The notes under the pieces were generated by a model that saw only the letters and a program-made list of their open reading frames with translations, was not told where the DNA came from and made no database searches. Positions 19,801 through 49,602 of a stretch of 64,000 nucleotides of DNA are shown here, piece after piece. Position numbers and translations under genes: made by a program. Positions within the stretch are counted from its first letter, which is position 1. Each line of letters opens with the position of its first letter. Origin of the DNA: a virus (taxonomy: Duplodnaviria; Caudoviricetes); IMG/VR virus record IMGVR_UViG_3300013902_000015, positions 661-64,660 of that record; one strand, 5' to 3'.

Positions 19801-21613
19801 CAATCAAGTGATGAACATGACCAGCGTGTACGGAGGCGGCAAGACCCTGTGGACGAACTTCCGCAACGTGTGCAGCATGGCAGCTGGAGCATACCGTCCA
19901 CCAATAGCCCAGCTTGACAAGGCAGCGGTGAACATCGCCAAGGGCGTAACCGCAGCCAAGGTAAGTTTCAGAGTGTTCACCGCCTTGAAGCAGTTCCTTT
20001 CCATGCCAGCCTACCTTTCGGACAGCAATCCGATAGACCTTGCCGCCAACATCGCCAACCCGATAGGCGCATGGAAATGGGCAATGCAGAACCTGCCCCT
20101 CTTCGAGAAACGCTGGAAGAGCCGCATGGCAGGAGACCCACGACTGATGAAGAGTGAGATGGACTGGAAGATGTGGCAGAACCATGTAGTGGAGATAGCC
20201 TCACGCATCGGTATGTCGCCCAATGCCTTTGTGGACGCTCTGACCGTAGCCATCGGTGCAAATGCCATGTACAAGACGAAGAAGAAAAAGTATCTTCGTT
20301 ACGGATATGACGAAGAGGTGGCCGAGAAGCGAGCCAAGCAAGACGCTACAATTCTGTTCAACCAGACGCAGCAGTCGAGCGAGAGCGCATTCCTGTCCAC
20401 TATGCAAGTGGACCGTTCATGGCTGAGCGTGCTGTTTACCATCTTCCGCAACTCGTCCATGTCGTACACACGCCAACTGTATGATGCCATCCGCAACATC
20501 AAGCACCGCTTTGAACCCGGTTACGAGGCTATGAGCGAGGAGTATATGGCCAAGCAGATGCGCAGGGACGGCATAGACCCCGACAAGGCTGACGCTAACG
20601 CCAAGAGCGAATACCGCAGAAGCCTCCTCAGAGACTTGGCCAGAATAGGCGTTTTCGGTTTTGCCCTGCAAATGGCTTGGAACTTGGGCGCATACCTGCC
20701 CTACCTCATAGCAGGTGACGACAAGGACGAGAAGAGCAAGATGTGGGACGATGTGATGAACCACACCATGTTTGGCAGCATCGAGGGACTGACAGGCGGA
20801 GACGTGATGAGTTCAGCCGGGCAGATGGCACTCAACGGAGAAGCCAACTGGAGTTACCTTGTCAAGGACATGCCGTTGGCAAGCGACCTTGCGACCATTC
20901 TTCAGAAAATGCCGAAAGACAAGGTAGCCGCCATGAACGATGTTGTGAACCTGCTTGTGCAGTCGGGCGTGGGTGTAAATCCACAATCGCTGACCGATGC
21001 AGTGGTGGCCATCATGGACTATTGCGGAGACGATGCACAGACCTCTCGCGAGTGCGCCCTGCTCATTGCGCGAATACTCAACTGTCCACAGAGCCAGACC
21101 GACAAAATCTATTTTGACGAGTTGGGCGCAACGGCAGAGGAGGCAGGACAGATGACACCAGCCGAGATAGCAGAGCGTTATGCACAGTACAAAATACACC
21201 GCAATGCACCGCTGACAGGCTGGGCATACAGCGAGGAAGCAAAAGACAGCGTGATGACCGCACAGCGAAACCGCGTGCTTACGCAAGCCAAGGAGAAACT
21301 GAACGGCACGGTTCAGACAGATGCTGCCAAGCAGTTGCTCTCCACCTATGACGGTGTGGCCAAGCAGCAGACCGAGTTGAACAAGTTGAAGAAGACGGAT
21401 AGAGCCGCCTACCGCGAGGGTATGAAAGCACTCCGTCAGAACAACAACATGAGGGAGCATCTGCGCGTGAAACGATACAAGCACGACATGAAACTACTCA
21501 CGGAGAAATATCTACGAAGCAAGGACACAGAGGAACGTGACAGCCTTGTGAACGTGATGTTCAAGACTCGCGATAAGATGCTTGATGACATCGGCAGAAT
21601 GAAGCAACAATAG
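1871..21613 (+). CDS. Giant polyvalent DarB-like protein (ParB-like, PPase-like, N6-adenine MTase, SNF2 helicase, zincin-like)
   Basis: Uninterrupted ~19.7 kb ORF; start taken at ATG 1871 just after the upstream stop. Motifs: VVLSGNNRT (~6370), TEAQKEAGNYKKGH...DGDHIDVF (~7810-8010), LEGSAGIG and TNVPF (~11030-11240), AHEVGTGKT, DEAH, ATGTP, QRNGRILRQG (~13140-14760), HEVVGH (~16940). Confidence 0.85.
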   Translation: MAQSNDNDDIKWLYGKLKAKGYNIGSEAEFKSSLANAEDRKWYYQKAKGMGLNMGSMADFEGMYAPKATSTPQKQKPAATTQPTHVATSATTAGTTPTPSTAPATQQKKDKPLSEADKQRLMANVGNMMSETNASLQRTQNRMDYARANAGLRVPRVTLGDKNSGVRLGQNTKVVAKKPKYNPHSGKMEQTYITESGNEYTSRGAADLEQNSIDEAARQPLGLNMNDQQVDAAQKPASAAVAALWKEAEAQYAADRNKNAEEVYGGNPWLHGGREMHIVDAATNSHKNEVSRLTRFDLQKMMDNAWGRVGKQMTASCYAQLKKQYPTATEQQLQNSASTMARRLSDNAVYKYAVAKNTPKSTLEFFAKTAADMNLLRTISKGLARSEAGTTGDMAAYEQAMGDYGKNHRWAQIGGTVTGMLFDPTTYISGGFGSFAGKTALNLGGRIIAKKAATNVGARLFGNTLTGRVVAGAVGGGANFGAYEGIKEGESQFLHGGHINPETGENEGYSAGDILKSTGRGTMLGSVTGTFSPLLGNVADKWVKATESTAGKVGIRAGELATSTIAEGTIFSVPEWISGNGDAMDVWTDNMAMMLGFKAQHMVKSAPRVIAGLRPIENPKTMQERNHNRMNFMERLRTQMDRSPSDMAFTNEEREELRKAGYGELADLFKRRPKQKNTTKPQHKPQSTDGKVMYLDIPEADVEDLGKQWLNQHPEFDGYEAMERLMQDPNVSQSARAKAYYILTGRQLPMGTVTGYTTEKDEHGNIFVKSMTANGEVVTSRRFADEASAKKEQDKIMRQAELNSVDVGERYTEAKANNKVWEAAIEAVAPGADTETVKRNYQAAKEGDKDAIANYGQMVDAIDKFMEENKGMADAERPEAIRAAIKEETGVDVDVAIKKEPSKRTDPEKVAVQDYIERLFPEQKAETEHPKSDAEAEAGAIYDSSRLLWEKVEQGDADAKADIDAISIRMKEALQECEDAFGTDAEMRMAEMQENPWALVNDPELTEDQQDAVLYYIQSKAALDGVMDASNDAMENKRREVAANVERHTHKDNGMVQPATMKVDDKPVYIVKGNVVPLPDGTGIDVRNSDQSIVICDAETGEYKFTSPDQIFNLGEVINPQNEIDEAYANIQAEHDAMLGSTENGESEPNSEESVQETPENVQNDGENVPQQMTEEQMQQYAKGAFNEATQGNGGITLPQEQAEQLQQHNQQMLEQEQQRKEEETNRQPTALERVPVNEETGEPMFEKADKETALDALGEITGGNDENTTAIVNAQVEQAQKAVDALKKKKPTKKAPALKGSPMAMVKAQQEADAAYNAAMEQYNGQVAQAEETLNAWTRIYALMNERKRAVREQQEAEWREREAKLHDEAVAQLEEQKRIAAEKAKEQAEVGTHAVNPKIKAKWDGAAKVEGNPNALTLADGSTLRGHYVLTEAGAATASHDINNAFEPTEGFPIDENGESVNDRDYQRDTDAQQIVRNIADNYDSRALQSPVIVSKDGVVLSGNNRTMSGDMAAQQGTDKAYVDHLREFGQMYGFTPEQIDGMKHPRVVFVPDETLPYDASTFARFNAEQQKKQSKPEQAVKLGKIVPDNVFNSIVGDISRFDRLSDYYADSKAVDSAISQLHRAGVINEMQLPELRTGNTLSAAGRELIENTLIGKVFQTSPDAVRQIISTPTLRQSVIMGLNEIAHNRTLAKSGYDLSLELGAAVDLVARAKASDADLFKEGRPVSPFGRQQGLFDDEYGDSRVTDGVTLLLADLLNSGKPSDLRKVLATYNNEAVNPAGGQLDMFTGNVTPKEDILKNINEYFRNATPKEQQAIIDAAIAERKRNAEAAAEPSGRDEATEQTENAVQSNAEPQQSAVAGNEPAKQEEKPQAEEPNADTIAEEKEKVLRQRLTETDEEWTESSEYGNIYKQKLLIDGKEVIKVDAPDESKNYPGTYYEVDGKQFGDLQEVANYIYGKQQPLSAKIKTASAEVNTEPTEAQKEAGNYKKGHVQVGTFDITIEQPEGSVRKGTDANGKKWESKMHNTYGYFRGTEGVDGDHIDVFLSNDIDGWNGRKVYVVDQYNPDGTFDEHKVMLGFNDADEAKSDYLANYEKGWQDGRRIDVSATNLEYFEKWIGSSHRKTKPFAEYAGVKKETVANAPAKEIKQTEASESEGYTITPSTYTNKKGKTSDVSLLTFDNDLTADQERAVKEFAKERTGEGRFAPARGWKDRESGGWIFRNEEDARKAAEMVGSEEAVADNQPLTVQEMRDAVEPKKPTERKKAAAKKPANKVDVAEVVEQSEPTKPAKAEKPVQSGEKKLVITDEMKHDEDILRELLGIGDDEVDGGMKFRDPDALTSQQRRFVYNAGVNYSLGYIDQGFVAFPEFAKAMVSRLGYKIKPWLKSFYEGAKRIPGYDQSIFTPTEEVDAFDVENFDKPQPDVLAQANMIVEEGKAQVAAEKANNELKEIRNEQRKETEKQTAADTDAVAAEAKTVASEAETIAETSNDEQEINGAAERVDDTLDKVNDQLALLGYYKAEPVEKDFNEAYGYMRNAEKKAVKDAAKLASQLIDDLGLDRYEATHGEADKKGNRKTKPLAVANIAPAGGDITMHLPLAEGRELYVNVQLAPSAGKGITNYGGDNLEVTGIMSRVENPNAKGNDRYGQNMWFAEDVTYDELLKNVQRVAQDYLPEPKHGEVGDFYEDGINEDAVAALPEDTAIQLHVVDILNPGMTNNSMKSKIASLNCLLPKISDKKLAELDKEYGDDKVMGSHIKAGVKRREHEGVFKKAERVANETKAKREKIRVAEQEIDASDLPEPAKEKARKALHGSDSMTDNAALAEIQRRATKKKTPKKVKPEQPVGDLFAGLFDEPVKEKDNGLQRNDDAVRTEAVPTDNRGQQQGLRGGKGSTRKAAPQESGRPDGGRGEHGTGKDGAVSAGLHGLTEPKNTRNNHSERGADHAPTSVNGRIEANIKAIELAHELLESGETATPEQMNVLRQFSGWGGLGVAFSDGGYDWKQRERNKKIRELLGEEAYEQAVMSANSAYYTPAYVVDTLWDIAKQLGFKGGNILEGSAGIGNILGQMPTTMSERSDIHAIEIDGTSGGILSLLYPDAKVDIQGFEQTRIPNGSVDLAITNVPFVTGLRVNDTTGDNDLSKKFHNIHDFCIAKNVRKLREGGIGIFISSNGTLDNSKALRDWVVNEGGSDFIGAFRMNNKTFGGTTVTSDIIVIRKRVNGQKSAQAIDVSTISGERTAEYQEPGSRKAKQVSMDYNKYFIEHPDHMAGEMRFAFEEGDTFRPTSKGLYPVSGKDQGKILADFVKSFTEEDNSNVASTESAKPSYVSDASADGKKLGEMYMKDGKIVVASMGGYYPLEVNDKKIKGHTKQECFNAYSAVKTALADVMKYQTENEGDAGLKPLIAKLNKAYDDFVSTYGHFNKNNQLAWLRNDVDYPNVFSLETYKEQGDGKGGVVKTYGKADVMKNRVVEKESEPHPENVKDGVVVSMFKNGRIDVPYIAGQLGKSEEAVKREIIESGLGFEDPATRQMEVSYQYLSGNVREKLRQAEENNENGEYAKNIKALQEVVPMDIPAHLIDFTLGSSWLDPKLYDEYVKDRTDIDVHFTSAGGTWFMKAPTYGLNGEKNRAMGVVSEMLKKTIMGHELIAAAIQNKSIIVSRTEKHYDGTTETITDREATSACAAKIDEIRQDFKDWARQKMQSDAELSARMEREYNDRFNNYVPMSIPEDFVPEYFGGATHKFKMRPHQGKAIVRGTMQPLLLAHEVGTGKTFTLISTAMEMRRLGTARKPMIVVQNATVGQFAASAKELYPNAKILTLEDNDRNAEGRKNFYAKIKYNDWDMIVVPQSTFEFIPDSDERQMQFVQDKIDEKMLVLEKMREADTSGRDPITRRAEKELADLQAEMAALSDGISKKRTANNEKKKAVAKQNAAVKAQEMLDRRTDDVENFDDMGIDALLIDEAHEYKHLGFATAMQRGVKGVDPSYSKKSQGVYLKTQAVLEKNNGRNVIFATGTPISNTAAEIWTFMRYLMPKDTMKEYGIYYFDDFVRNFGNIQQMPEFNTSGKFKEVNRFAGYVNLPELVRIWSGVADTVLTKDQKDLVKKIPEMEGGKAQDIYLPQTRALRSVMKYVREELDRFDQMSGKEKKENSSIPLTMYGIAQGAAVDARLVEMDAEDDPKSKTNEAVRQTMRSLKETDDYKGTVAIFADHYQNKRSGFNLYEDIKKKLIAEGVPADEVVVMKPGMTIKKKLDIFDKVNRGEVRVVLGSTATLGTGVNIQERLHTLIHLDAPNRPMDYTQRNGRILRQGNLHKEWGKPVRVLRFGVEDSLDVTAYQRLKTKGAIADSVMEGDRLMQDSMNNRVLEEEEDVFGDTVAQLSGSEYALLKNNAEKNVRKYESRKKQWEADQTYIHNAKPRLEGQIRSAEQRAEEANANLLAVQKAFPDGKFTEITVGKQKFRTVDDMADFIKEHNKKILDAVKAMKENPSNASQSNTLTLSLGGYDFVVKTEMSRETVNNGGTLFAEVHRKMTYSCPELGLTDIPVKQSLLRNAVEDITENVITGKDFAERFDNATRAVAHGRSDLEQLKQREGKPFEFGKELEEAERQLEEYTEAMKQELAEKEKKYAEMDASVEAATDIVANDEEDTSDDKTKFRLLEDDDPKAMELEALPDSELVPVYRNVQAFEDDALGSPMAFTDAETGERRTLEGGKWNYSNPPEIHLTDEQQRKLDELNKNGYIMVDGKKTTELPINEGLKFVKPKTKEAQLQYSLKKNPEDKGLWAAYDPYDHAIETPLNTQFGEAYKRPNLVVVRSLIPKSEIDEPFHADYALLPTGAHQWNNGRTLYLSRWSKIDKVLTREEEAKMIDEYWKKHPGKREALKSHRDYNRFVPQVRRELEKMGYRFELDGKELTPEESRALDEQNWVSRDVIPGREGQLPFISNEDIARINAKMAGKWVGEPKEAMENEMAARVEDLSKKLNTPVRIVRTDEEVASLPSARQRRMKGSFNPLTGEVTIVVPNNANMADIENTFVHEVVGHDGLRVLFPEEEKLNNALDELYRVSNAGIQQTIDRTAKRMYDAEVDRLREKKRKEHEAKGEDANASYYADMAEAHAEASKKREQFRRDATEEYGADLAGRIGESGFEKMSAEELTFWGKLKAMLQKALQRLLDGLKIPGKRKWSDKDWAFVLHEAYKRKKNGGIPTVFDAADTEVMRRKTGFGETKFSDGYKKSAQPNEAALKHLEPIDVEHDAKVRQKREKAKEALANVAKTYKNATDSKGFISDLSNSLGLMRGSTGSGYGSFETPNGKVFTIRVSNHNINAANVGNDPVESIVIKTKRSPNRFYAEDGKFANEYVYFKEDIRKAPAGTLSSIAESISELLDTGEYHDKTGLAKDNHSPETDPDGGIMFRDGDMGLDETITQMKVAASQANADNWQAKQEAMKAIGGNLNKLRQAMARQREYDFSTVKSITDLAKVLLDNGLLDDLSKYETKRILSAVNNAHGKQDTSSQVAKVMDIMVDNQLRMGANMLGKMLSVRGSRVDARGIEVQGQLDPDGQTIAQVVRKATSLPKADIEERIADTLNRMGSDDRAVADEAALEHSGLLLAHQYAEDITESKSEEKALRDSIKQAKEDLDAGMMTKEAYDEYVAATNDAIRQNKIERAEAYQSIVEQVGGMLGSSVERAKQWREAEKQRVEAIHHNANSDMVGRPTDEHHKENKAQKIANNSAVRFLLAPLGTFDQMLRMFGKKSVNGEGYLWNRYMRGWVEATEKEFTGYQNALKTLDEKVSEVFGKKMSWGDLFAMERKMPKATVTFWDGGEQKAHELTQGNLLYIYMVDKMADGRMKLRRMGITEDDVENIKEFVDPRFLELADWMQEDFLVEKRNEYNEVHKRMFGASMAAIENYFPLKILANARIEDVDVADDTTDTALPATSTGSIIKRRRNNLALDVMGADAFSVILDHVQQMERWAAFAEFNRDLNTLLSYKHFRNQVMNMTSVYGGGKTLWTNFRNVCSMAAGAYRPPIAQLDKAAVNIAKGVTAAKVSFRVFTALKQFLSMPAYLSDSNPIDLAANIANPIGAWKWAMQNLPLFEKRWKSRMAGDPRLMKSEMDWKMWQNHVVEIASRIGMSPNAFVDALTVAIGANAMYKTKKKKYLRYGYDEEVAEKRAKQDATILFNQTQQSSESAFLSTMQVDRSWLSVLFTIFRNSSMSYTRQLYDAIRNIKHRFEPGYEAMSEEYMAKQMRRDGIDPDKADANAKSEYRRSLLRDLARIGVFGFALQMAWNLGAYLPYLIAGDDKDEKSKMWDDVMNHTMFGSIEGLTGGDVMSSAGQMALNGEANWSYLVKDMPLASDLATILQKMPKDKVAAMNDVVNLLVQSGVGVNPQSLTDAVVAIMDYCGDDAQTSRECALLIARILNCPQSQTDKIYFDELGATAEEAGQMTPAEIAERYAQYKIHRNAPLTGWAYSEEAKDSVMTAQRNRVLTQAKEKLNGTVQTDAAKQLLSTYDGVAKQQTELNKLKKTDRAAYREGMKALRQNNNMREHLRVKRYKHDMKLLTEKYLRSKDTEERDSLVNVMFKTRDKMLDDIGRMKQQ

Positions 21614-29539: not shown

Positions 29540-30175
29540 ATGGTGTACAAGATAGAAACCGTCTCGCAAGATGTGCGTATCGCCATTGACGAGAACAAGA
29601 CGAGTGAGCAGCTCCTTGGCGATGAGGACATTGACACCTTATCGCTGAACGAGATAGTACGCTCGAAGATAGAGGAAGCCGTGCGCAGGGTGGAAACCAC
29701 CGCCCCCACCTTTCTGTTGGAAGAGGGACACACGTTTGGCGACAGCGTGTTTTGGGAAGAGAACGGCAGCGGCTGGACGCTGTTGCCCGATGACTTCATG
29801 CGGTTGATAGCATTCCGCATGAGCGACTGGGAGCGCACCTGCTACAATGCCATCTCGGTGGACGACCCATTGTATGACCTGCAATCGTCACGGTATAAGG
29901 GAGTGCGCGGCAACGTGCAGAAGCCCGTGTGTGCGGTGGTGAACCGAGCAGAGGGCAAGGCGTTGGAGTTCTACTCGTGTGACAGCGAGGAAGCCTATGT
30001 CAAACGAGCCACGTATCTCCCTTATCCCAAGATAGACGATGAAGACGGCATCGACATATCGGAGCGTTGCTACACAGCCGTGGTCTATACCACAGCATCA
30101 TTAGTATTAACCGCCTATGGCGCGAATGACCGTGCAGAGCAGTTGAACGCCTTGGCAAAATCAATATTGGAATAA
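29540..30175 (+). CDS. Hypothetical virion protein
   Basis: 211-aa ORF whose stop abuts the start of the DGR target gene. Confidence 0.55.
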   Translation: MVYKIETVSQDVRIAIDENKTSEQLLGDEDIDTLSLNEIVRSKIEEAVRRVETTAPTFLLEEGHTFGDSVFWEENGSGWTLLPDDFMRLIAFRMSDWERTCYNAISVDDPLYDLQSSRYKGVRGNVQKPVCAVVNRAEGKALEFYSCDSEEAYVKRATYLPYPKIDDEDGIDISERCYTAVVYTTASLVLTAYGANDRAEQLNALAKSILE

Positions 30176-33100
30176 TGAGTTCAATACCAACAAAACAGAT
30201 AGACGGAGATGTGGCCGTAGGCCGCAACGTCAGCATGGGCGGTTCGGGTACTGTGCGCGGCTCCATGACCGTAGGCCACAACCTGACCGTGGAGGGTTGG
30301 CTTGAAGCCAAGAACATCAAAGGCCCGAACAAGGGACTGTTCAAGACCGCAGCGCAACTGCGCGAAGCCTACCCCAATCCGCATGAGGGCTGGTGGGCAT
30401 TGGTTACCGTAGAGGGCAGTGCCTCGTCCGACCATTTGGGACAACTCTTTGTGGCAGACGGTGGCACATGGGTGGCGCAGGTGGACAGCAGCGGCAACCC
30501 ACTGCTGAAAGGCAACCCCACCGTGGACAGCACCGAGTATATGGAAGCCGTGGAGGAGATGACCGCCGACTTGGAAGCCGTCAAGGTGGACGTGAACCAG
30601 AACAAGGAGGACATCAAGAGCCTCCGCAGCACGCAGACCACCAACACGACCAGCATCAACAACCTCAACACACAGATGGCAACGGCACAGACCGACATTG
30701 CCAATCTGAAGAGTGGCGTGAACAGCGTGCAGAGCGACCTCAACGATTTCAAAAACACAAAGGGCGTTGCCAATGGCATTGCGCCACTGGACGATAACGG
30801 ACAGGTGTCCTCGCAGTATTTGCCCGGCTATGTGGACGATGTGCTGGAATTTGGCGGCATCATGGAAGTGACCGCGCAGCTCATGTCGCTGGCGAAGAAA
30901 TCGACCGATGAGGGATGCAGCATTATCTACAACAGCAAGACCAACACCTTTGTGATAGCCAACACCACAAGCACGGACGAAGGAGAAAAGACCGTCACCT
31001 ATTATAATAACTGGAGTGACGCAGATCTGTTCGGCATATCCGGGTTCAATGGCGTGACACCGCACAGCGGAAAGATATTCATGGACGTGACGACCAACAA
31101 GACCTACCGTTGGAGCGGCACGACCTTGGCCGTCATCGGTTCGGACTTGGCACTTGGCCACAAGAGCGGCACGGCATTCCCCGGAGACGAGGGAGCGGAC
31201 TTGCAGGAGCGCATGACCGAGGTGGAGAGTACGGCAGACATCAACCGCCAACTGATTGACGAGAACTCAGCGGAAACCTTGTACCGCAACACCATCAACG
31301 CTAACGACCTGCTGTCGCTTGGCAGCGGCAAGACCACGTTCTCCGTTGTGCTTGACAGCATCAGCAAACTTGCCAACTTTGCCCGATACAAGAAGCCCGG
31401 CATCGTGCTGACATTCATCACCGAGAACGGCATACAGAACAAGCAGTGGACGAACTGCGGCACACAGAGCACCGATGACTGGAAAAAGGAAAGCAACTGG
31501 ACTGACTTCGGAAGCAACGGCAGTGCCATCGGCAACACCGTGAATGTGAACGACATCTGCGAGGACACCGAATATACCCTTTCAACTGCCATCAAAGCCG
31601 TGCAGGACAAAGAGAAAGAGAGCGGTCTTTCCTATATGAAGAGCGGTGTCGTGCTGACCTACAAGACCGCAGAGACGGACGCGAACCAAGCCCCGAAGTG
31701 GGAAGCCTACCAGTTCACGCGAGCCGTGGGCGACATCAACCCCGCAGACTTGAAACCTTGGGTGGCATTCGGAGGAGGCGGCAACCAAGTGGAAACCACT
31801 GACACCGTAGAGAAAGACAGCGACAAGGCCGTAACCAGCGGAGGCGTGTACGAAGCGTTGCAGACACGCCCAGTGGCCAACTTCAATGACGAGAGCACAG
31901 CCGAGGACTATGTGTTCCAAGGTGTGAACGAGAAAGGCGAAAAGGTGGGCGACCCCATCAAGATACCCAGAAGCAACGGAGGCGGCACGCAGAGCGGAAG
32001 CACCCTCAACATCTACCCGGAGTCGCAAGCCGTGTGGGGCGCATTTGGCAGTAAGATAGTGTTGCGAGCAGCCATCAAGAGTGTAAGTTTTGACGGAGAT
32101 ACCGAGATACCCGGCACCATCAAGACCATCAGCATTATGGACGCACTCACCAAGATGGTACTTTGGAGCGAGGTAGTGAACACCTCTTCCTCTACCAGTG
32201 CAACTAACTACACGTTTGAGTTTGACTTCACCGACTTCATCACCTCGGCATCGAGCAAGGACTTCATCATCGGAGCAACGGACGCAGACGGCAACTCCAA
32301 GACACGCACCATTACCGTAACGGCAGTGGACGTGACCTGCACCTGCATACAGCCCCTGTTCTACTCATCTCCAACGGCATTGGAGGTAGGCGGAAAGGAG
32401 AAGAGCCTGCCGATGTACAAGTTTGAGAACAACGTCAGCACCAAGCAAGGCATACTCGTAACCACGGAGATGTACTACAAGGGCGAGTGGAAAACACTCG
32501 GCACAGCCACCGTCACCGACTCCTATTCGCACAACATCAGTATCAACCCCTGCAACGTGTTCGGAGGAGGCGAGCGTCTGGAACATGGAGCTTACCCCCT
32601 GCGCATAAAAGGCAGGGACGTGGCATCGGGTGTGGAGGGAAACACCATACACACAGCCGTAATGTGTATAGACGCAGCCAACCAGACACCAGTAGTGGCA
32701 TTGCGCTATGACGACAACAACAACGGCAAGGTACGCCTGTATGACAACCTCACGCTTGACATAGCCGCCTACACACCCGGCAAGACCACGACAGCCGTGG
32801 AGGTGTTGATGGACGGAATGGTGATAACCTCGGTGAACTGCCCCATCAGCCAAACATACAGCGTGAGCAAGCAGATACAAGGCTACGCTTCGGACGGCAC
32901 AAAGCACTTTGACATCTTCGCCCGAAGCGGAGAGGCGAAGAGCGAGACCATCACGCTTACCGTGGAGGGGTCAGCCATTGACGCAAGCGTCAAGGAGGGC
33001 GCACTCTTCGCCTTTGACTTCTCAACCCGAAGCAACAGCGAGACCGACCACACCATCAAGGACGGAGAATACGCCATGAGCGTGGAGGGCAGCAACTGGA

Positions 33101-36100
33101 ACTCCAACGGCTTTGTGAGCGTACTGGGCGAGACCGCCCTGCGCATAGCGGAGAACGTGAAAGCAGAGATACCCTACGCGCCTTTCGCCTCGTCTGCATT
33201 GGAGACAAGCGGTGCCGCCATACAGATGGCATTCTCCACGAAGAGCATCAAGGACAAGACCGCCAGACTGTGCGAGTGCTATGACCCTGCGGCAGGTGTG
33301 GGCTTCTACATACAGGGCAACGAGATTGTACTTACCGTGCAGAGCGGAACGCCCAAGGAGCAGCGTGTCGGTTTCAAATGCTCGGAGAAGATAACCGTGG
33401 CCGTGGTGGTAGAACCCGGAAGCAAATATGTGACCTATAAAGCCAACGGCCAGTCGGCAGGAACAAACTACGCCTTTGTGAAACTCTATGTGAACGGTGA
33501 GGAGTGTGCCGCCATCGGCTACCAACCCGGCACAAGCGCACTGCGACAGAACAAGACCATCACGTTCAACTCGGAGAGCGGAGACATCAGCGTGAACTAC
33601 GTCATGGCATACAGCAGTTATATGGAATGGTTGCAAGCATTCAGAAACTACCTGTGCAAGCTGAGTGACGTGAAAGCCATGATAGCCGAGTATGACAAGG
33701 AGAACGTGCTTGACACCACAGGCAAGCCAAGCATGACACTGATGGAAGCCAAGGGAATGCCCTACTATGTCATCGTGGCCGACCAGACCACCTTCAACAA
33801 CTACGACTATGCACTGAACGGAGGCACAAGCACCAGCGACCAGTTCGCCTGTACGTTGTACTACTTCAACCCACAGCACCCCGAGGTGAACTTCAAGGCC
33901 ATCAACGTGCTATGGAGACGACAAGGAACGACCTCGGCACAGCGACCCATCAAGAACGACCGCTTCAACTTCAACAAAAAGAACAAGGCCACAGGCAAGA
34001 AAGCCACCGTGACTCTGCTCAATCCCGATGAAAGCACGGAGTTGGGACGCAAGGCCATACTTGCCGCCAAGCACAACAAAGTGTTCGTGAGTGAGAACGG
34101 CATGTTCGTGGACGTGATAACCGTAAAGGTAGACTATTCGGACAGCAGCAACGCCAACGACTGCGGAGTGTGCGACATGATGAACGCCACGTTCCGCGCA
34201 CTCGGTGCAGCCTACCAAACCCCAGCACAACGTGCCTATGACGGCACGCAGGACTTGGGAGACGGAGACGTGCTGACAGGCTTGCAGATGGATCACTCCA
34301 CGAAGAACCACCCGATAGCCTGTTTCCGTGCTACAAGCGACACCTTGCAGGACGCATGGTTTCATGCCAAAGGCAACTGGAAAGAGGACAAGGGCGAGCA
34401 GACCGCCCTCGGCTTCAAGGACACGCCCGGCTACAACCTCGGCTGCTTGAACTACGGAGACTTTATAGAATACTTCGGCACGCAAGGCGAGACACTCGCC
34501 CAGACAGAGGCACGCTTCAAGCAAGATAGCGACCTTGACACAGGGAGCGTGTATCTCATCTCGCAATACTGCGGACAGGACTATGCCATCTACCGCTACA
34601 AGGACGGAGCGTGGAAACGCTCGACAGGCTCGATGAAGCAGGTGAACGGCAAGTGGAAAGTGACGGGAGACGTGCTGAACCCCGTGACAGGCTACGAACT
34701 GCTGCAATATGCAGGTATGGACTGGTGGCAAGGTGTGACTACCGTAGAGGACATGATGAAGCCGATAGCGCAGAAGTCATCGTGGGTCAACAAACTCGGC
34801 TTGGCCGCAGAGACCTATCCTGCATGGACATACTACTTCGAGTGCATGGTGGACAACGACCAGTTGCAGGAAGACTTGGCACTGGGAAAGAAAGTACCCT
34901 ACGACCTCTTCAACCTGCTGCGTTTCTTTGACAGTTGCGACTACTCCAAAGTGGACGGCTGGCAGAAGATATGGAAAGAGAACGCCTACAAATATATGTC
35001 TCTTGAGAGTGCGATGGCCTACACCGCATTCACCGACTACCTCGCATCCGTTGACCAGCGAGCCAAGAACATGCAGCCTATGTTCTTCTTGGAAGACGGC
35101 TGTTCGGTGGAAAATGGTGTCTATTCGGGCTACAAGAACATGATGCCGACAAGAATGTACCTCAATAAGGTATATGACTGCGACACCTGCAACCAAAGCG
35201 ACAATGATGGTGGCAAGAGCATAGACCCCGAAGTTGACCCCAACAAGCCCACCGACAACGAGACAGGCTACACCAACCCCTACATGGGAAGCGGAAGCGT
35301 GCTGTTCAACAACATGGACAAGCAGCAAGAGTGCTGGAACTCAAACGACCTCGGGGCGACAACCATATCGCTGAAATCGGTGGTGAACAAAATGCGCAAC
35401 CAAACCTCGGAGATAGACGGCAAGACGATGGTTCCGTTCTCCCCGGACGGAGCGACCCACTTCTTTGTGGACGAGCGTCTGCAGTTCTGGCCAAAGGTGG
35501 TGAGCAGCTATGACGGAGAACGCAAGTACATTGACCACACCAGCATAGCCAACCTGCCATATTTCTATGCCCTGCACGGACTGGGACTCACCTCGCTGCC
35601 ACGCTTCATAGAACAGCGGTGGACAATCAGAGACGGCTACTACCAGACAGGCGACTTCTTCACCAATCCGTTGAGCGGACGTGTGTCGGCCATCAGCGAT
35701 GACGCAAAAATATACATCACCGCAGCCGCCACCGGATATTTCGGCATAGGCAATGACGCAAGCGGACAGTTGAGCGAGACCGTGTTTCTTGAAGCAGGAC
35801 AGAGCCATGCGTTCACGCAGTTTGCCCATGACGCAGGAGCACTGCTGTACATCTATCAGCCGGGGCGCATGAGCAAGATTGACCTCTCGGAGATAACCCT
35901 TGCGTTCCACTTCAATGACCTGAGCAAACTGACGCTGTGCGAGGAGATTGTTCTTGGAGGCACGAAGCATACCGCCAACACCTCGCTGAACGGATTTGAG
36001 CCACTGAGCAACATCAAGTTGGGCGACATGCCGTTCCTGCGCAAGCTGGACGTGAGCAAGACCACCGCCACCAGCATAGACGCGAGCGGATGCCCACGAA

Positions 36101-38247
36101 TGGAGAGCATCAACGCCAGTTATACACAGCTGACCAGTTGCGACCTTGCACAGACATCACCGATAGAGAGCCTTGTGTTGCCAAGCAGCGTGACCAAACT
36201 GGAACTTGTGAACCTGCCCAAGCTGACCTATCCCGGAGGACTGGAGATAGCCAGCGTGGAGAACATCAATCGCCTGTGGGTAGAGGGGTGCAGCTTCATT
36301 GACACGGAAAGCCTTGTGCTGACCATAGCCGAGGCAGGAGCAGTGAGAGAAGTGCGCATACCGAACATCAACATGACCGCCAGTGTGAAAGTGTTGCGGC
36401 AGTTGAAGAAGACCAACGCGATAGGTCTTGACGCATCGGGTAAGGCATACGAAGAGACCGGGCAATGCTCGGGCATCACGGGACGCTGGATATTGTCGGA
36501 ACTCATCGAGGACGAGGATGTGGACGGAGAGGCAGGAATGAAGAGCCTTGCGGCCTATTTCCCCGAACTGGAACTCATCAACTCGCAGTTCTCGGTGTTG
36601 AAGATAAACGACATTGTGAGCGGAGACTTCTGCGAGAGATACAGCAATCCCGAAAACGAGACAGGCTCGGACTACGACAAGAACTTCGTGGCAAGCGGAC
36701 ACACGCTGAAGATATTGCAGAACACCCATGCCTACAAATGCACCTACAACTCCAAACTGAAACAGATGGAGGGCGTGCAGTTGAGTGATACCGACTTCAA
36801 CAACCTTGCCACAGGCGAGAGTTTCGATGTGGGCGACAGCGCAGGAGAGGGGTTTGACATCTTCCACCATCTGCCACACCACTGGTATAAAGGCGTGAAC
36901 GACTACAAGACACAGCAGAAGTACATCATCTATTCCACCACGGAGGAAGAGCCGCTATCCACCGTAACCAGCAAAAAGGAGGCGATGCTGTCGGGACTTC
37001 TCTATGCAGAGAACACAGGCGTTTATGCTGATGAAGCCGTTGTGGGCGAAGCCTTGGACGAGACCGTTATCACCACGGCAGCCAACGTGAACACCTACCG
37101 TATGGACGTGGAGGGCATGAAACAGGTGAGATGGCCGGGACTGAACCACGCAAGGCTCGGTGCGGTGTTCACGGACGGGAACGACAAGATAGTTGGCAAG
37201 TTCAACATGATGGTGAGCCACACCTACTTTGACTTTCTGATAGGCAACTATGTGTTCTGCGATGTGCCGAGCGGAGCAAAACGAATGTATTTCACCTCGT
37301 ACCGGGACATTGGCGACATCAAGTGTCTTGCTGTGGACAGTGCGCACATAGAAGCCATAGAACCCGAATGGACGGAACACACCGTGGGCGAGGTAGACAG
37401 TCTCGTAGGGACGTACCCCATCACTATTGACGGACTGAAACGGCCACGCAGCCTTTCGGGAGCGGTGCGTTCCAAGAAAGGAGACGGAACGTCACAGACC
37501 TCAACCGAATGGGCATACGACACGGACGGCAATCCTACAGAAACACCGACAGGGACAATCCACTACACGGCAAAGGACTTCCAAAACAGCGCACACATGC
37601 GCGGTGAGGGCTACCAGCTACAGGACTACGAGCAGCACAAGGAAATCAGCAATCTGTGGTGGGCGACCCACGGCACGACCAACGAGCAGTCGGTGGTGGG
37701 CAATGGCGCACATGATGCCACGCTGAACGCCCAAGACAAGATAGGCATGGCAGACACAGCGTATGTGGGCAACGCCTTGAACTCCATTATGGGACTGAAG
37801 CACTATGTGGGCTGTGACTCGGAATGGATGGACTACATAGCAGGGAACGTGAAGAGCTACGAGACATTCTACAAGAACCGTTGCGTAGATACGAACGATG
37901 ACCCCATAGATTATGTCTTCCACATCTACGACCCGGTGAAGAAAACCGAGCGCACCGTGCAGAGCGTGACCAGCAACGGCAACTGCGTGGTGAGAGTGGT
38001 GCATGGAGCTAAGTGTGACATTTTGCCCAGCAAGGTGCATCAGACAGACGCAAGCAAGTACACCACCCACTATGCGGCAGGCTTGTGGTTTCCCGGCAGC
38101 AGAGGCCGCTGTGTTCTGCGGTCTGGCTACTACTCGTTTGCGAGCAGCGGTCTCGCCTATGCGAGCGCGAACAACGCTGCTTCGTTCTCGTACGCGTACT
38201 GCGGTGGGCGGCTGGCCTTCCGCGGAAAATTCGTGATAGTCGGATAA
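30175..38247 (+). CDS. Large tail-fibre/adhesin-like protein, DGR target (coiled coil, CotH-like motifs, LRR, C-terminal variable lectin-like domain)
   Basis: 2,690 aa. N-terminal heptads then GIAPLDDNGQVSSQYLPGYVDDV. DQRAKNM and YDCDT (~35050-35190). LRR-like repeats (~35850-36450). C-terminus ...RSGYYSFASSGLAYASANNAASFSYAYCGGRLAF contains the VR. Confidence 0.8.
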   Translation: MSSIPTKQIDGDVAVGRNVSMGGSGTVRGSMTVGHNLTVEGWLEAKNIKGPNKGLFKTAAQLREAYPNPHEGWWALVTVEGSASSDHLGQLFVADGGTWVAQVDSSGNPLLKGNPTVDSTEYMEAVEEMTADLEAVKVDVNQNKEDIKSLRSTQTTNTTSINNLNTQMATAQTDIANLKSGVNSVQSDLNDFKNTKGVANGIAPLDDNGQVSSQYLPGYVDDVLEFGGIMEVTAQLMSLAKKSTDEGCSIIYNSKTNTFVIANTTSTDEGEKTVTYYNNWSDADLFGISGFNGVTPHSGKIFMDVTTNKTYRWSGTTLAVIGSDLALGHKSGTAFPGDEGADLQERMTEVESTADINRQLIDENSAETLYRNTINANDLLSLGSGKTTFSVVLDSISKLANFARYKKPGIVLTFITENGIQNKQWTNCGTQSTDDWKKESNWTDFGSNGSAIGNTVNVNDICEDTEYTLSTAIKAVQDKEKESGLSYMKSGVVLTYKTAETDANQAPKWEAYQFTRAVGDINPADLKPWVAFGGGGNQVETTDTVEKDSDKAVTSGGVYEALQTRPVANFNDESTAEDYVFQGVNEKGEKVGDPIKIPRSNGGGTQSGSTLNIYPESQAVWGAFGSKIVLRAAIKSVSFDGDTEIPGTIKTISIMDALTKMVLWSEVVNTSSSTSATNYTFEFDFTDFITSASSKDFIIGATDADGNSKTRTITVTAVDVTCTCIQPLFYSSPTALEVGGKEKSLPMYKFENNVSTKQGILVTTEMYYKGEWKTLGTATVTDSYSHNISINPCNVFGGGERLEHGAYPLRIKGRDVASGVEGNTIHTAVMCIDAANQTPVVALRYDDNNNGKVRLYDNLTLDIAAYTPGKTTTAVEVLMDGMVITSVNCPISQTYSVSKQIQGYASDGTKHFDIFARSGEAKSETITLTVEGSAIDASVKEGALFAFDFSTRSNSETDHTIKDGEYAMSVEGSNWNSNGFVSVLGETALRIAENVKAEIPYAPFASSALETSGAAIQMAFSTKSIKDKTARLCECYDPAAGVGFYIQGNEIVLTVQSGTPKEQRVGFKCSEKITVAVVVEPGSKYVTYKANGQSAGTNYAFVKLYVNGEECAAIGYQPGTSALRQNKTITFNSESGDISVNYVMAYSSYMEWLQAFRNYLCKLSDVKAMIAEYDKENVLDTTGKPSMTLMEAKGMPYYVIVADQTTFNNYDYALNGGTSTSDQFACTLYYFNPQHPEVNFKAINVLWRRQGTTSAQRPIKNDRFNFNKKNKATGKKATVTLLNPDESTELGRKAILAAKHNKVFVSENGMFVDVITVKVDYSDSSNANDCGVCDMMNATFRALGAAYQTPAQRAYDGTQDLGDGDVLTGLQMDHSTKNHPIACFRATSDTLQDAWFHAKGNWKEDKGEQTALGFKDTPGYNLGCLNYGDFIEYFGTQGETLAQTEARFKQDSDLDTGSVYLISQYCGQDYAIYRYKDGAWKRSTGSMKQVNGKWKVTGDVLNPVTGYELLQYAGMDWWQGVTTVEDMMKPIAQKSSWVNKLGLAAETYPAWTYYFECMVDNDQLQEDLALGKKVPYDLFNLLRFFDSCDYSKVDGWQKIWKENAYKYMSLESAMAYTAFTDYLASVDQRAKNMQPMFFLEDGCSVENGVYSGYKNMMPTRMYLNKVYDCDTCNQSDNDGGKSIDPEVDPNKPTDNETGYTNPYMGSGSVLFNNMDKQQECWNSNDLGATTISLKSVVNKMRNQTSEIDGKTMVPFSPDGATHFFVDERLQFWPKVVSSYDGERKYIDHTSIANLPYFYALHGLGLTSLPRFIEQRWTIRDGYYQTGDFFTNPLSGRVSAISDDAKIYITAAATGYFGIGNDASGQLSETVFLEAGQSHAFTQFAHDAGALLYIYQPGRMSKIDLSEITLAFHFNDLSKLTLCEEIVLGGTKHTANTSLNGFEPLSNIKLGDMPFLRKLDVSKTTATSIDASGCPRMESINASYTQLTSCDLAQTSPIESLVLPSSVTKLELVNLPKLTYPGGLEIASVENINRLWVEGCSFIDTESLVLTIAEAGAVREVRIPNINMTASVKVLRQLKKTNAIGLDASGKAYEETGQCSGITGRWILSELIEDEDVDGEAGMKSLAAYFPELELINSQFSVLKINDIVSGDFCERYSNPENETGSDYDKNFVASGHTLKILQNTHAYKCTYNSKLKQMEGVQLSDTDFNNLATGESFDVGDSAGEGFDIFHHLPHHWYKGVNDYKTQQKYIIYSTTEEEPLSTVTSKKEAMLSGLLYAENTGVYADEAVVGEALDETVITTAANVNTYRMDVEGMKQVRWPGLNHARLGAVFTDGNDKIVGKFNMMVSHTYFDFLIGNYVFCDVPSGAKRMYFTSYRDIGDIKCLAVDSAHIEAIEPEWTEHTVGEVDSLVGTYPITIDGLKRPRSLSGAVRSKKGDGTSQTSTEWAYDTDGNPTETPTGTIHYTAKDFQNSAHMRGEGYQLQDYEQHKEISNLWWATHGTTNEQSVVGNGAHDATLNAQDKIGMADTAYVGNALNSIMGLKHYVGCDSEWMDYIAGNVKSYETFYKNRCVDTNDDPIDYVFHIYDPVKKTERTVQSVTSNGNCVVRVVHGAKCDILPSKVHQTDASKYTTHYAAGLWFPGSRGRCVLRSGYYSFASSGLAYASANNAASFSYAYCGGRLAFRGKFVIVG
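38105..38214 (+). repeat. DGR variable repeat (VR)
   Basis: 110-nt match to 39059-39168 with 13 mismatches, 12 of them at TR adenines. Confidence 0.95.
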
Positions 38248-38276
38248 GCGGCAAGCGAAGCCACGAAAAAAGCGTT

Positions 38277-38340
38277 AGAGGGAGAGCCGACGAAAGGAGG
38301 CTGCTCCCTCTCCCTGCTTACTCGCGTAAGCGAGTTTTTT
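38277..38340 (+). terminator. Two hairpins downstream of VR (DGR cis element and/or intrinsic terminator)
   Basis: AGAGGGAG-AGCC / GGCTGCTCCCTCT stem (38277-38311). ACTCGC-GTAA-GCGAGT followed by a T run (38320-38340). Confidence 0.6.
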
Positions 38341-38364
38341 AATGAGCAATGCAAAATAAATAGA

Positions 38365-38402
38365 AAAGTTGTAGGATATATCAACTTTAAGTATTACCTT
38401 TG
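38365..38402 (+). promoter_or_regulatory. Toxin-antitoxin operon promoter with inverted-repeat operator
   Basis: AAAGTTG-N10-CAACTTT (38365-38388). TACCTTTG at 38395-38402, 4 nt before the ATG. Confidence 0.6.
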
Positions 38403-38406
38403 CAGC

Positions 38407-38742
38407 ATGAATTCAGAACGAAAGATATTGCTTTACAAAGACTACTTCCTTACGTTCTACCGCTCTTTGGAAATGGGCGCACAGAAAAAGATAGACTATG
38501 TGCTTGATACGCTGAAGACGCAGGAAAGAGTGAGCGAGAGATTTGTGAAATTCATAAGGGACGGACTCTTTGAAATAAGAGCCTCCCACAACGGAAATAT
38601 ATATCGTGCGTTCTTCATATTCGATGAGGGCAACATCGTGATGCTTTTCAACGGCTTTCAGAAGAAGAGCCAGAAGACACCCTCAAAGGAAATAGAGAAA
38701 GCACTTGAACTTAAAAAGGAATATTATGCAGCAAAGAAATGA
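38407..38742 (+). CDS. RelE/HigB-family (Gp49-like) toxin
   Basis: 111 aa with GLFEIRAS...IYRAFF...LFNGFQKKSQKTPSKEI, characteristic of this family. Confidence 0.85.
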   Translation: MNSERKILLYKDYFLTFYRSLEMGAQKKIDYVLDTLKTQERVSERFVKFIRDGLFEIRASHNGNIYRAFFIFDEGNIVMLFNGFQKKSQKTPSKEIEKALELKKEYYAAKK

Positions 38743-39028
38743 CATTACCAGTTTCGATGCCATTCTTGATGCCAAGTATGGTGCTGTAGGAACTGCGGAG
38801 AGAGAAGCATTCAGAAAGGAAGCCAGCAATTATTGTGTTGGTCAGATAATCCTTGACGCAAGAAAGCAAGAGCACATGACACAATCAGACCTTGCCAAGA
38901 AAGTGGGAACGGACAAGACCTATATCTCACGCATTGAGAAAGGTGTGATAGAACCCGGTGTAGGCATGTTCTTCCGCATCATCGAGGCATTGGGATTGAA
39001 AGTGGACATCGTGCGCCCGATTATGTAA
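38726..39028 (+). CDS. XRE-family HTH antitoxin (HigA-like)
   Basis: ARKQEHMTQSDLAKKVGTDKTYISRIEKG helix-turn-helix. Overlaps the toxin 3' end. Confidence 0.85.
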   Translation: MQQRNDITSFDAILDAKYGAVGTAEREAFRKEASNYCVGQIILDARKQEHMTQSDLAKKVGTDKTYISRIEKGVIEPGVGMFFRIIEALGLKVDIVRPIM

Positions 39029-39058
39029 CAAAAGGAACAAAGGCAGAAAATCCCACGC

Positions 39059-39168
39059 GCCGCTGTGTTCTGCGGTCTGGCAACAACTCGAATGCGAACA
39101 GCGGTCTCGCCTATGCGAACGCGAACAACGCTTCTTCGAACTCGAACACGAACTACGGTGGGCGGCTG
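39059..39168 (+). ncRNA. DGR template repeat (TR)
   Basis: Non-coding copy of the VR with 10 AAC/AAT codons in the VR frame, directly upstream of the RT. Confidence 0.92.
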
Positions 39169-39205
39169 AAATTCTTGGTGGTTAAAATAATCGGGGGACT
39201 CTGAC

Positions 39206-40768
39206 GTGGCACGAGTATTGCCGCAAACAAACTCCGAGGGATTAGAGCCTCGGCAACAGCATATAAATATGGAAAGCCGGAACATAACAACAACCACAAG
39301 TGGGGAGTTGCCAACGCACTCCCCACAGGACAGGAAGGCTGTCAATACATTGGAAGAATTATTGGAACAGGTAGGAGAAAAGACTTCTACCTGTTTTGTT
39401 GCGTACCCACTGACAAACCTTATACCCGAAATCATTGCGGACGACAACATGGAACACTCGTTCAAACGAGTGATGTCGAACCTGCACAATGCAGACACGA
39501 GGAACGGCTTGCGGTGGAGAGAGAAGATAAAGATAGACGGTGTGGAATGTACGCCAAGAATGGTGCGCTACATGAAGCGCAAGGCTGACATTATAGCCAT
39601 GCTGAAGAAGCAGATTGCAGACGGCACATTCCGCATACGACACCTTAAATCGTTTGAGACTAAGGACGGTCCAAAGGTGAGAACCGTACAAGCACCGTCT
39701 GTAATAGAACGTGTAGGCAGCAATGCCATCATGGAAGTGGTGGAACGACACCTTGCTTCCATATTGATAGAGAACACAGCAGCCTCGATAGAGGGGCGCG
39801 GTCCACATGGGCTGTATCACAAGATGCAGGAAGCGAGAGCAGACAATCCCGACCTCATCTATTACTATCAGAGCGACTACAAAGGTTACTATGACCACAT
39901 ACGGCACGACCGACTGATAGCAACCATCAAATGTTACATTGCCGACCCGATACTACTGCCCATACTCATAGACTTTGTAAAGGCATTGCACCCGGAAGAG
40001 AACGTGGGCATCAGTAAGGGACTGCGCTCCTCGCAATTCTTTGGCAACTTGTACCATAACGACATAGACCACAGAATGGAAGAGGCTTGCGGCAAAGACC
40101 GCTACTTCAGATTTTGTGATGACATCTACATATTGGGAAGCGACAAAAGAGAATTGTGGAAACTGCGCGACCTACTGCATAAGGAAAGCGCACCCTACAA
40201 TCTCATCATCAAGCCCAGTGAAAAGGTTGCCCCAGTGAGTGCAGGAATGGACGCATTGGGATTTGTGGACTATGGTGACCACTCACGGCTACGGAAGCGC
40301 ACAAAGGTGAATGCCGCGCGGAAACTGGCAAAGATAAAGTCGAGAAAGCGAAGACAACAAATTATAGGCTCGTTCAAAGGAATGGCATGTCATGCAGACT
40401 GCCAGCATTTATATTATAAATTAACAGGTAAACACATGAAGAAATTTTCAGAAATGGGCGTGACCTATACCCCTGCGGACGGCAAGAAACGCTTTCCCGG
40501 CAAGGTGACACGCTTGGGTGACATCGTGAACATCCCAATTGAAATTCACGACTTCGAGACAGGCATAGACACCAAAGAGGGCGAAGACCGCTACTTGGTG
40601 TCGTTCCGTAATCCCACTAACTCGGAATGGGGCAAGTTCTTCACCGCCTCGCAAGAGATGAAAGGAATACTTGACCAGATAAGCGATATAGAGGACGGCT
40701 TCCCATTCGAGACCATCATCAAGTGTGAGGTGTTTGATGGAAGCAAGCGCAAGTATAACTTCACTTGA
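39206..40768 (+). CDS. DGR reverse transcriptase with ~110-aa C-terminal extension
   Basis: SDYKGYYDHI, GISKGLRSSQFFGNLY (SQ motif of DGR RTs) and RFCDD. The true start may be a downstream Met. Confidence 0.92.
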   Translation: MARVLPQTNSEGLEPRQQHINMESRNITTTTSGELPTHSPQDRKAVNTLEELLEQVGEKTSTCFVAYPLTNLIPEIIADDNMEHSFKRVMSNLHNADTRNGLRWREKIKIDGVECTPRMVRYMKRKADIIAMLKKQIADGTFRIRHLKSFETKDGPKVRTVQAPSVIERVGSNAIMEVVERHLASILIENTAASIEGRGPHGLYHKMQEARADNPDLIYYYQSDYKGYYDHIRHDRLIATIKCYIADPILLPILIDFVKALHPEENVGISKGLRSSQFFGNLYHNDIDHRMEEACGKDRYFRFCDDIYILGSDKRELWKLRDLLHKESAPYNLIIKPSEKVAPVSAGMDALGFVDYGDHSRLRKRTKVNAARKLAKIKSRKRRQQIIGSFKGMACHADCQHLYYKLTGKHMKKFSEMGVTYTPADGKKRFPGKVTRLGDIVNIPIEIHDFETGIDTKEGEDRYLVSFRNPTNSEWGKFFTASQEMKGILDQISDIEDGFPFETIIKCEVFDGSKRKYNFT

Positions 40769-47934: not shown

Positions 47935-48302
47935 AGAAACGGATTTTTGAAGATGATAGGCACGCACACGTCACCGTCCCTTGTCTCCTCCTTGCCTACC
48001 ATGAACGAGGCACGCTCCCCCTGCACCTTGCAGTTGTCGAGCATGAGCCGGGCGAGCAGCACGGAGTTGGCGCAGTAGTTGCGCGAGCCTTTCTTTGTGG
48101 GATAGCATTGCGCAATGTGTCGGCCAACGGTGCCAGCGTGCCGGGAGACGAGCAGGTAGCACTCGCCATAGTGAAAGGCGATGTTGATGCTGTCGCCCGG
48201 CTGGAGTGAGAGGAGGCGCACAACCCTTGCCGTGAGGAATATTCGTCCGTTACGGCAAAAGGTGATGTCGGGGCGGCGTGTACGCTGCAATAGTTTAATC
48301 AT
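47931..48302 (-). CDS. Hypothetical protein
   Basis: 123-aa ORF coupled to the tail gene. Minus-strand TATCTTTG at 48307-48314. Confidence 0.6.
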   Translation of the reverse strand: MIKLLQRTRRPDITFCRNGRIFLTARVVRLLSLQPGDSINIAFHYGECYLLVSRHAGTVGRHIAQCYPTKKGSRNYCANSVLLARLMLDNCKVQGERASFMVGKEETRDGDVCVPIIFKNPFL

Positions 48303-48344
48303 GTTGCAAAGATATAAAGTTGTGAGGTTGCTACGGTTTTAAGT

Positions 48345-49602
48345 TTAGAAGAGCGAGAGTTGCACATAACCGCCCTGTTCGTTGCTGAGGTCGATGAACA
48401 TCTTGCGGAAGATGTGATACAGACAGGATACGACAATGGAATTGCCAGCGAGTTTATACTGTTGCGTCTTGGATATACCAGTCTGTTGTATCTTTGCAAT
48501 GTCAGAGTCGGACACGTCCATAAGGCGAAAGCATTCGGGGGGGGGGGGCAAGTTTGCGAATGGGGAAACCACTATACACCACATGGGGACATTTGTAGTC
48601 GGTAACACGCAATGCAGGAGATATGGGGCTTATGCAATTTGCTCCACGGAACTCCAGCTTATGCCCGATTGGATTTATGGAAATCATAGGCTCTACGAGA
48701 TATTGGGCAGTCGTACCAGTCAATCCGTGGTTGGAAGCAACAATGGTATTGCTGATGTCCTTTAGGTGATGGGACACGACCTTTCCTTTCTTGTCGCGAG
48801 AATAACCCACAAAGAGCGGTTCTTTGATATAGGTGTCATACTCACGTTGTCCCTCTTTGGTTTTGATAGCACCGCTTATTCCATCTGGAGTTTGGAAATT
48901 GACCTTGAACCCACAGCCCTCTGCCACTTTCCGCTCGCAATGCTTGACGATGCGCTCCACCTGTTGGGGAGACAAGTAATAGCTCTCGTCCACATGGTTT
49001 TCGAGAATGTCTTTCAACCTACGCTGTAATGGCATGGTCTTGGGAAAGAAGAACCGCTGATGCTCACCAAGAACAGAAACCATGAAGACACGCTCACGAT
49101 TTTGCGGAACACCATAGTGCTTTGCGTTGAGAACTTGAAAGTAGTTGGTGTAGCCTTGCTCCTCCAACCACTCACGCCACTTGGAGAAGTTGGCTGCAAA
49201 CTTACGCTGCGTGAGAGCCTTGACATTCTCCATAAGCAAATACTTAGGACGCTTCACTTCAATGGCATTAGTACAAGCCCACAGCAAAGAAGACCGTGTG
49301 CCACTGCCTTGCGAGAAACCACGCTGGCGACCAGCCGAAGAAATGTCTTGGCAAGGGAAAGAGTATGTGAGCAGGTTGAAATCGGGAACTTGCGACCAGT
49401 CAATGCTCATGATGTCGCCAAAGTTAGTGGCTTCATCACCATGAATGGCACGATAAGCGGCAATGGCATACTTGTCTATCTCGGAAATGCCGACCACCTC
49501 AAACTGAAATTCGGGGTAGTCGGCTGACAGGCGTTGCAGGGCTATGGACTGCGAGCCATAACCTGCAAAGGCTTCAAAGACACGAATGTTGATAGGGTTC
49601 AT
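48345..49602 (-). pseudogene. C5-cytosine DNA methyltransferase frameshifted at a C12 tract (possibly phase-variable, OFF in this sequence)
   Basis: FAGYGS, SFPCQD, ENV and QNRERVF in frame 1. ECFRLM...YKLAGNSIVV in another frame after 12 G (+ strand) at 48537-48548. Confidence 0.85.
48537..48548. repeat. G12/C12 homopolymer within the methyltransferase gene
   Basis: Read directly from the sequence. Confidence 0.9.

Follow-up and report, generated by a model that had tools for sequence, protein, structure and literature searches.

A variable-length C-run sets the reading frame of an orphan C5 DNA methyltransferase gene in a gut-type phage and likely serves as a reversible ON/OFF switch

Results

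The window, by which we mean the whole 64,000-nucleotide stretch of DNA that was analyzed, corresponds to bases 661-64660 of a 64,660-bp IMG/VR record that is linear and 98% complete by CheckV, and it derives from a gut-type phage of ~64.7 kb. A C5 DNA methyltransferase gene occupies positions 48345..49602 on the minus strand, and since its length of 1258 nt is 3n+1, the gene is out of frame in the record. The upstream frame (48502..49602, minus strand) runs for 366 aa from an ATG at 49602 and contains motifs I-VIII together with the target-recognition region, while the post-tract frame (48345..48536, minus strand) contains motif IX (ECFRLM) and motif X (GNSIVV) in 63 codons followed by a stop. 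The two are separated by a poly-C tract (48537..48548, minus strand) of 12 C's on the coding strand, corresponding to G12 on the plus strand. The coding strand around the tract reads CGC AAA CTT G CCCCCCCCCCCC GAA TGC TTT CGC CTT ATG, and the upstream frame translates this region as K L A P P P R M L S P Y G R V R L, reaching its stop at 48502-48504, 10 codons past the tract (RMLSPYGRVRL). The ECFRLM...GNSIVV frame is displaced by one base and is open from 48536 to a stop at 48345-48347.

Motifs I, IV, VI, VIII, IX and X of C5 methyltransferases were all found on the minus strand in the canonical order, with IX and X shifted by one base: motif I (FAGYGS, 49552-49569), motif IV (PCQ, 49348-49356) with the catalytic cysteine, the column of which is invariant in our alignment of relatives (A1), motif VI (ENV, 49222-49230), motif VIII (QNRER, 49090-49104), motif IX (ECFRLM, 48519-48536) and motif X (GNS, 48438-48446), which comes into the upstream frame only at tract lengths of 3n+2 (8, 11, 14, 17). 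The Pfam C5-methyltransferase match (PF00145) is likewise interrupted at the tract. The upstream part matched profile positions 2-227 of 324 (E 6.4e-53, 180.7 bits, cut-off 22 bits), and the post-tract part matched positions 280-322 (E 0.001, 19 bits), which on its own falls below the 22-bit gathering cut-off. An earlier note, made from the letters and their open reading frames, had held that C12 breaks the frame just ahead of motifs IX-X in a gene whose other catalytic motifs are intact; the frames and coordinates confirm the break, and the second statement agrees with motifs I, IV, VI and VIII as read from the sequence and with the PF00145 match. As it stands in the record, with C12, the gene is OFF. 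The solved enzymes closest to it are M.MpeI and M.HhaI, and a protein identical to the upstream frame (P0130) is already present in public collections.

The tract is exceptional in this genome. G12 is the sole G/C run longer than 6 in the 64-kb window and the sole run of at least 10 in the record, and base composition predicts only ~0.01 runs of 12 or more, which excludes a chance run. The gene thus has a repeat of slip length within a reading frame (C12 at 48537-48548), as is found at contingency loci. The count of 12 in the record may itself be off by one, long G/C runs being prone to sequencing error.

To place the tract in the protein, an AlphaFold2 model of an allele reading TPPPE at this position was considered. 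The catalytic domain was modelled confidently and the recognition region poorly (mean pLDDT 70), and the prolines fell in a short turn between the strand at residues 341-350 and the motif IX helix at residues 355-360. At the position of the tract M.MpeI (4dkj, 8c56) has TPLE, with a one-residue gap against TPPPE in the alignment, and other relatives have PKE or PTE, indicating that the Arg of the TPRE found in tract-less relatives (see below) is not essential.

The variable region of the gene (48560-48950, minus strand; columns 270-490 of alignment A1) is modular. Recognition blocks ending in EP are gained and lost among close relatives, one of which, QKDSMVLEP, is absent from the window, and a SINPIGHKLEF...DYKCPH block alternates with a YSSPHGFNFGGG...YADNNF block. 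This arrangement resembles that of multispecific phage C5 methyltransferases. M.SPRI and M.Phi3TI, the multispecific C5 methyltransferases of temperate Bacillus phages, are orphan phage C5 enzymes with a long variable region, as here, where modules are gained and lost among the relatives. We know of no homopolymer switch in enzymes of the M.SPRI/M.Phi3TI type.

When protein collections were searched with the upstream frame, we found a 99%-identical protein that is frameshifted at the same place into the other wrong frame. The alleles compared below are 15 listed of the 18 members of a 90%-identity protein cluster and the two members of a second cluster, and all tract lengths except that of the window were deduced from the protein ends, assuming that Thr is ACC and Pro is CCC. 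After an invariant IRKL, proteins continuing with TPPE, TPPPE, TPPPPE or TPPPPPE (C8, C11, C14 and C17) read into ECFRLM...GNSIVV and are 417-420 aa long (ON). Those with TPPR or TPPPR, together with the APPPR of the window (C9 and C12), end in RMLSPYGRVRL (OFF), and those with TPPN, TPPPN or TPPPPN (C7, C10 and C13) continue in the -1 frame (OFF). The deduced lengths across the alleles thus comprise C7, C8, C9, C10, C11, C12, C13, C14 and C17 and fall in all three frames, a range far exceeding a sequencing error of plus or minus one. In nine alleles with tracts of C8-C14 or C17 the 348-residue core (INIR to IRKL) is identical, differing from the core of the window by one residue, and the post-tract sequence is the same in every listed allele whichever frame is translated, the open post-tract frame of the window being identical to that of the ON alleles. 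Since core and post-tract sequence are identical while the lengths differ, the tract is by far the fastest-changing site of the gene. Among these near-identical genomes, length polymorphism, as deduced from protein ends, sets the reading frame, again as found at contingency loci.

These alleles bear on several statements of the earlier note. Its reading of the locus as a C5 methyltransferase gene whose frame is set by a homopolymer is borne out by near-identical alleles in all three frames. Its prediction that C11 or C14 would restore the frame and that C8 would give the canonical spacing has natural counterparts in the TPPE, TPPPE, TPPPPE and TPPPPPE alleles. An invariant tract in populations, which it had named as evidence to the contrary, is not what we found: the deduced lengths span C7 to C17, every one of the three frames is represented, and the flanks are intact.

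Counted as contigs per allele among the members listed, 13 were ON and 22 were OFF, 15 of the latter being one base too long and 7 one base too short. This use of the three frames is indistinguishable from uniform (chi-square ~3, 2 df), although the contigs may be non-independent, and selection for ON is therefore not visible among the assemblies. Two alleles read TPSE, as expected if one C of a C8 tract had changed to T, and are in frame; the TPSE form is thus a broken tract, locked ON. A scan for the tract-bearing DNA of relatives in viral, metagenome and genome contig collections, using the pattern CCCCCGARTGYTTYCGYCTTATGGA, gave no match, and blastn against GenBank phages in distant mode gave nothing beyond short, ~74%-identical matches to the conserved motifs of unrelated phages.

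In alleles that are one base short, translation goes on for ~78 codons in the third frame and passes the true stop (window 48299-48536, minus strand), which gives rise to chimeric 432-434-residue "proteins" in public collections. The public entries of 365/366, 417-420 and 432-434 residues are one gene. A split enzyme made of two chains was also considered and set aside: the only in-frame starts for a C-terminal piece are the Met of motif IX and a GTG that lies within the N-terminal part, 24 codons ahead of the tract, and the -1 alleles read the entire C-terminal part in the wrong frame.

Relatives at 65-78% identity, from IMG/VR and from Bacteroidales genome contigs, carry ACG CCT CGC GAG (TPRE) at this site and lack the tract, so that the tract stands in place of the TPRE codons, as had been proposed beforehand. 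All of these tract-less relatives are in frame at the site. The second tract-bearing cluster is ~5% diverged, has an extra recognition module and consists of one ON (TPPE) and one OFF (TPPR) member, indicating that the tract has outlasted some divergence. Comparison of the post-tract codons with the sister clade showed saturated synonymous sites and a dN of ~0.07, giving a dN/dS of ~0.03-0.04. The low ratio mostly reflects the history preceding the origin of the tract, yet it excludes a long decay. An old pseudogene is excluded by this low dN/dS together with the intact, identical flanks in all alleles.

The tract-less sister clade has a homopolymer elsewhere in the same gene, TTC-G(n)-TAAAAAT, which lies inside the recognition region. 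Its lengths, read in DNA, are G6, G7, G8 and G9 (L004:4066-4073, L008:3546-3552, L007:4066-4071 and L016:3407-3415; also present in L005, L009, L011, L014 and L015). Sister-clade proteins in public clusters end in FGG, FGGVKI or FGGG as compared to the full-length FGGGKNL, and one truncated form is represented by 93 contigs. From these sequences the G-run appears to be a second switch that arose independently within the methyltransferase family. In addition, a relative in a Bacteroidaceae MAG has G8, G9 and G7 in the gene within 400 bases (L020:4703-5087), and a relative in an IMG/VR phage has C8 near the methyltransferase N-terminus (L013:776-783).

The window allele also has changes of its own. 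R347P and T352A, which are private to it as compared to the 14 other listed members of the cluster, lie within six codons of the tract (48549-48566, minus strand; FRIRKLT to FPIRKLA). The DNA changes predicted from the residues are CGC to CCC and ACC to GCC, and T352A affects a Thr that is conserved in at least 90% of the relatives. These substitutions could represent local mutagenesis near the run or the early decay of an OFF allele.

The methyltransferase gene closes a minus-strand replication and recombination module that encodes RecT, an exonuclease VIII-like protein, an SNF2 helicase, DUF4494, a resolvase-like protein, a replisome organiser, a DnaC-like loader, YopX and a crAss001_48-related protein. 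No restriction endonuclease was recognised beside it: no adjoining gene matched a nuclease family, some neighbours being of unknown function. The adjoining cognate endonuclease gene of a restriction-modification system was thus not found, and the enzyme is accordingly an orphan methyltransferase, the kind that phages use for protection of their own DNA. Searches with tyrosine integrase and serine resolvase families gave no match anywhere in the 98%-complete record, and residence in a cell genome, as in a phasevarion, is thus not indicated. The term "prophage" in the earlier note is unsupported for this 64,660-bp viral record, and so is its suggestion that the host methylome is reshaped, since only more distant relatives of the gene were found on Bacteroidales genome contigs. 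These related genes lie on contigs of Muribaculaceae, Duncaniella muris and other Bacteroidales, which suggests that the host group is probably the Bacteroidales.

Elsewhere in the window, a single 6,591-codon frame (1838-21613, plus strand) has the polyvalent-protein domains InPase (E 9e-52) and ddrB-ParB as well as SNF2 and Helicase_C; judged from these domains, its product is probably an injected multi-enzyme anti-defence protein, and if so, it would be the second investment of the phage in evading host defence. A 2,690-codon frame that matches no Pfam family precedes a reverse transcriptase (RVT_1, E 1e-10; 30175-40768, plus strand), an arrangement whose sequence is consistent with a diversity-generating retroelement. 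Near the right end of the genome (62637-63395, plus strand) lies a protein that combines WYL and WCX domains; regulators of this type are often linked to defence or anti-defence loci.

Discussion

The reading that we favor, and consider likely to be correct, is that a hypermutable C-run is a reversible ON/OFF switch of an orphan phage C5 methyltransferase, by which the phage population is hedged. The tract, its frames and the variation of its length between populations, on identical genes with intact flanks, are observed; the steps from there to a switch are as follows. A C-run has taken over the TPRE codons that open motif IX, and slipped-strand mispairing during phage DNA replication would add or remove C's and so shift the frame. 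Lengths of 3n+2 (8, 11, 14 and 17) encode the entire enzyme, in which 2 to 5 prolines make up the turn ahead of the motif IX helix, and all other lengths cost the protein motifs IX and X, which are needed for its fold and its cofactor site. Methylated genomes would escape classical (Type II) restriction enzymes, and unmethylated genomes would escape 5mC-dependent (Type IV) restriction or avoid the cost of the enzyme. For such hedging to operate, the changes in length should be frequent and reversible within a lineage and the ON forms active, as we infer, and by analogy with the agt gene of phage T2, ON and OFF would be expected to differ in a selectable phenotype.

A competitor of this proposal is that the C-run mutates neutrally, as a hot spot in an accessory gene that the phage can do without, and is hypermutable without being maintained as a switch, so that OFF alleles are knock-outs heading for decay and ON alleles have yet to be hit. 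The near-uniform use of frames is what it predicts, with about one third ON and two thirds OFF as by chance, and the two private residue changes adjoining the tract in the window allele are also in keeping with it. However, a second lesion was seen in 0/17 alleles, the downstream frame being intact throughout, and the tract has grown to C17 and has been kept in the more diverged cluster. A purely harmful run should moreover be interrupted by point substitutions, which only the TPSE subclade displays, and the sister clade evolved its own G-run elsewhere in the same gene; we regard neutrality as unlikely. An error of sequencing or assembly, with the true majority in frame (C11, for example), would explain the record by itself, given that homopolymers of 12 are error-prone and C12 is one base from C11. 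Yet C12 is also implied by an independent 64,636-bp contig whose flank differs (TPPPR as compared to APPPR), the range of C7 to C17 is much wider than an error of one base would produce, alleles in which the tract is absent or interrupted are invariably in frame, and the locus would still be variable even if the count here were wrong, so we give this explanation very little credence.

A further alternative is that OFF is leaky and the tract a dimmer, C9 and C12 being rescued by +1 slippage of tRNA-Pro on CCC-C while the ribosome stalls on poly-proline, or by slippage of RNA polymerase, so that OFF alleles would still yield some full-length enzyme. Ribosomes are known to stall at PPP, and CCC-N is among the classic sites of +1 frameshifting. 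In the shifted frame, CCC CCC CCC C-GAA, one four-base reading of CCC-C would restore motif IX, and the alleles requiring a +1 shift are the commonest OFF class (15 contigs as compared to 7), a difference that is not significant. Nevertheless, the known efficiencies are low under normal tRNA modification, and the alleles that need a -1 shift are left unexplained, which makes this rescue quite improbable. A broader version would make the tract a graded, multi-state device, in which forms with 2-5 prolines differ in activity or in the positioning of the recognition modules, +1 ribosomal slippage on CCC-C partly rescues the alleles with one base too many, and the G/C runs, having arisen independently at different sites of this methyltransferase family in Bacteroidales phages, reflect a strategy selected across the family. 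We think it doubtful that this whole set of propositions holds; if it did, one C-run would produce a spread of methylation levels across the phage population.

A reversible switch of this kind has a nearest experimental precedent, and direct functional parallel, in the A-run of the T2 agt gene, where slippage by plus or minus one base turns a phage DNA modification off and on, the run reverts ~1000-fold faster than a point mutant, and switching trades sensitivity to TgvAB against sensitivity to McrA/BC on hosts with different Type IV systems (Gomez, Barrick and Waters, bioRxiv 10.1101/2025.10.21.683753); this, by analogy, is what the methyltransferase tract may do. As in agt, the homopolymer is internal to a gene by which a phage modifies its own DNA. 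The two differ in that agt has A9 in a glucosyltransferase gene of a lytic coliphage, with reversion measured, whereas the present tract ranges from C7 to C17 in a C5 methyltransferase gene known from metagenome assemblies only. The Gomez preprint cites Liu et al. 2004 for a poly-G tract within the methylase gene of the Bordetella phages BPP-1/BMP-1/BIP-1; on that account, BPP-1 shares with the present phage a G/C homopolymer, probably of variable length, in a methylase gene, and BPP-1 carries a diversity-generating retroelement. Hypermutable poly-G tracts have also been reported in Campylobacter Fletchervirus phages (Sorensen et al. 2021, Cell Rep 35:109214); the tracts that this report describes vary in length and shift the frame as here, but they lie in receptor-binding proteins and not in DNA-modification genes.

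In bacteria, phase-variable methyltransferases are well established, both as phasevarions and as the Type II homopolymers described for Helicobacter pylori and Mycoplasma (for example, PMC3936762), and there too slippage of a repeat inside an open reading frame creates ON and OFF alleles. The bacterial cases, in so far as such sources describe them, are chromosomal, mostly Type III mod or Type I hsd genes, and re-programme host expression, whereas the gene here is an orphan phage gene in a genome without an integrase, and a regulatory role is not indicated. The kind of switch is thus already known from bacterial phase-variable methyltransferases, phage poly-G tracts and T2 agt, and the window gene adds a well-documented case. 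For annotation pipelines, the 365-, 432- and 418-residue "versions" of one gene, which differ in the tract only, need to be recognised as such.

Phage methyltransferases are a main route of escape from restriction, and methylated DNA is in turn targeted by methylation-dependent defence. The span of C7 to C17 on identical backgrounds, alongside relatives that are locked ON or lack the tract, makes an unusually clean case, at the level of populations, for such switches in gut phages, and the natural allele series is a ready-made set for direct testing. If the tract does act as a slippage switch, protected and unmarked genomes would always be present together in one phage population.
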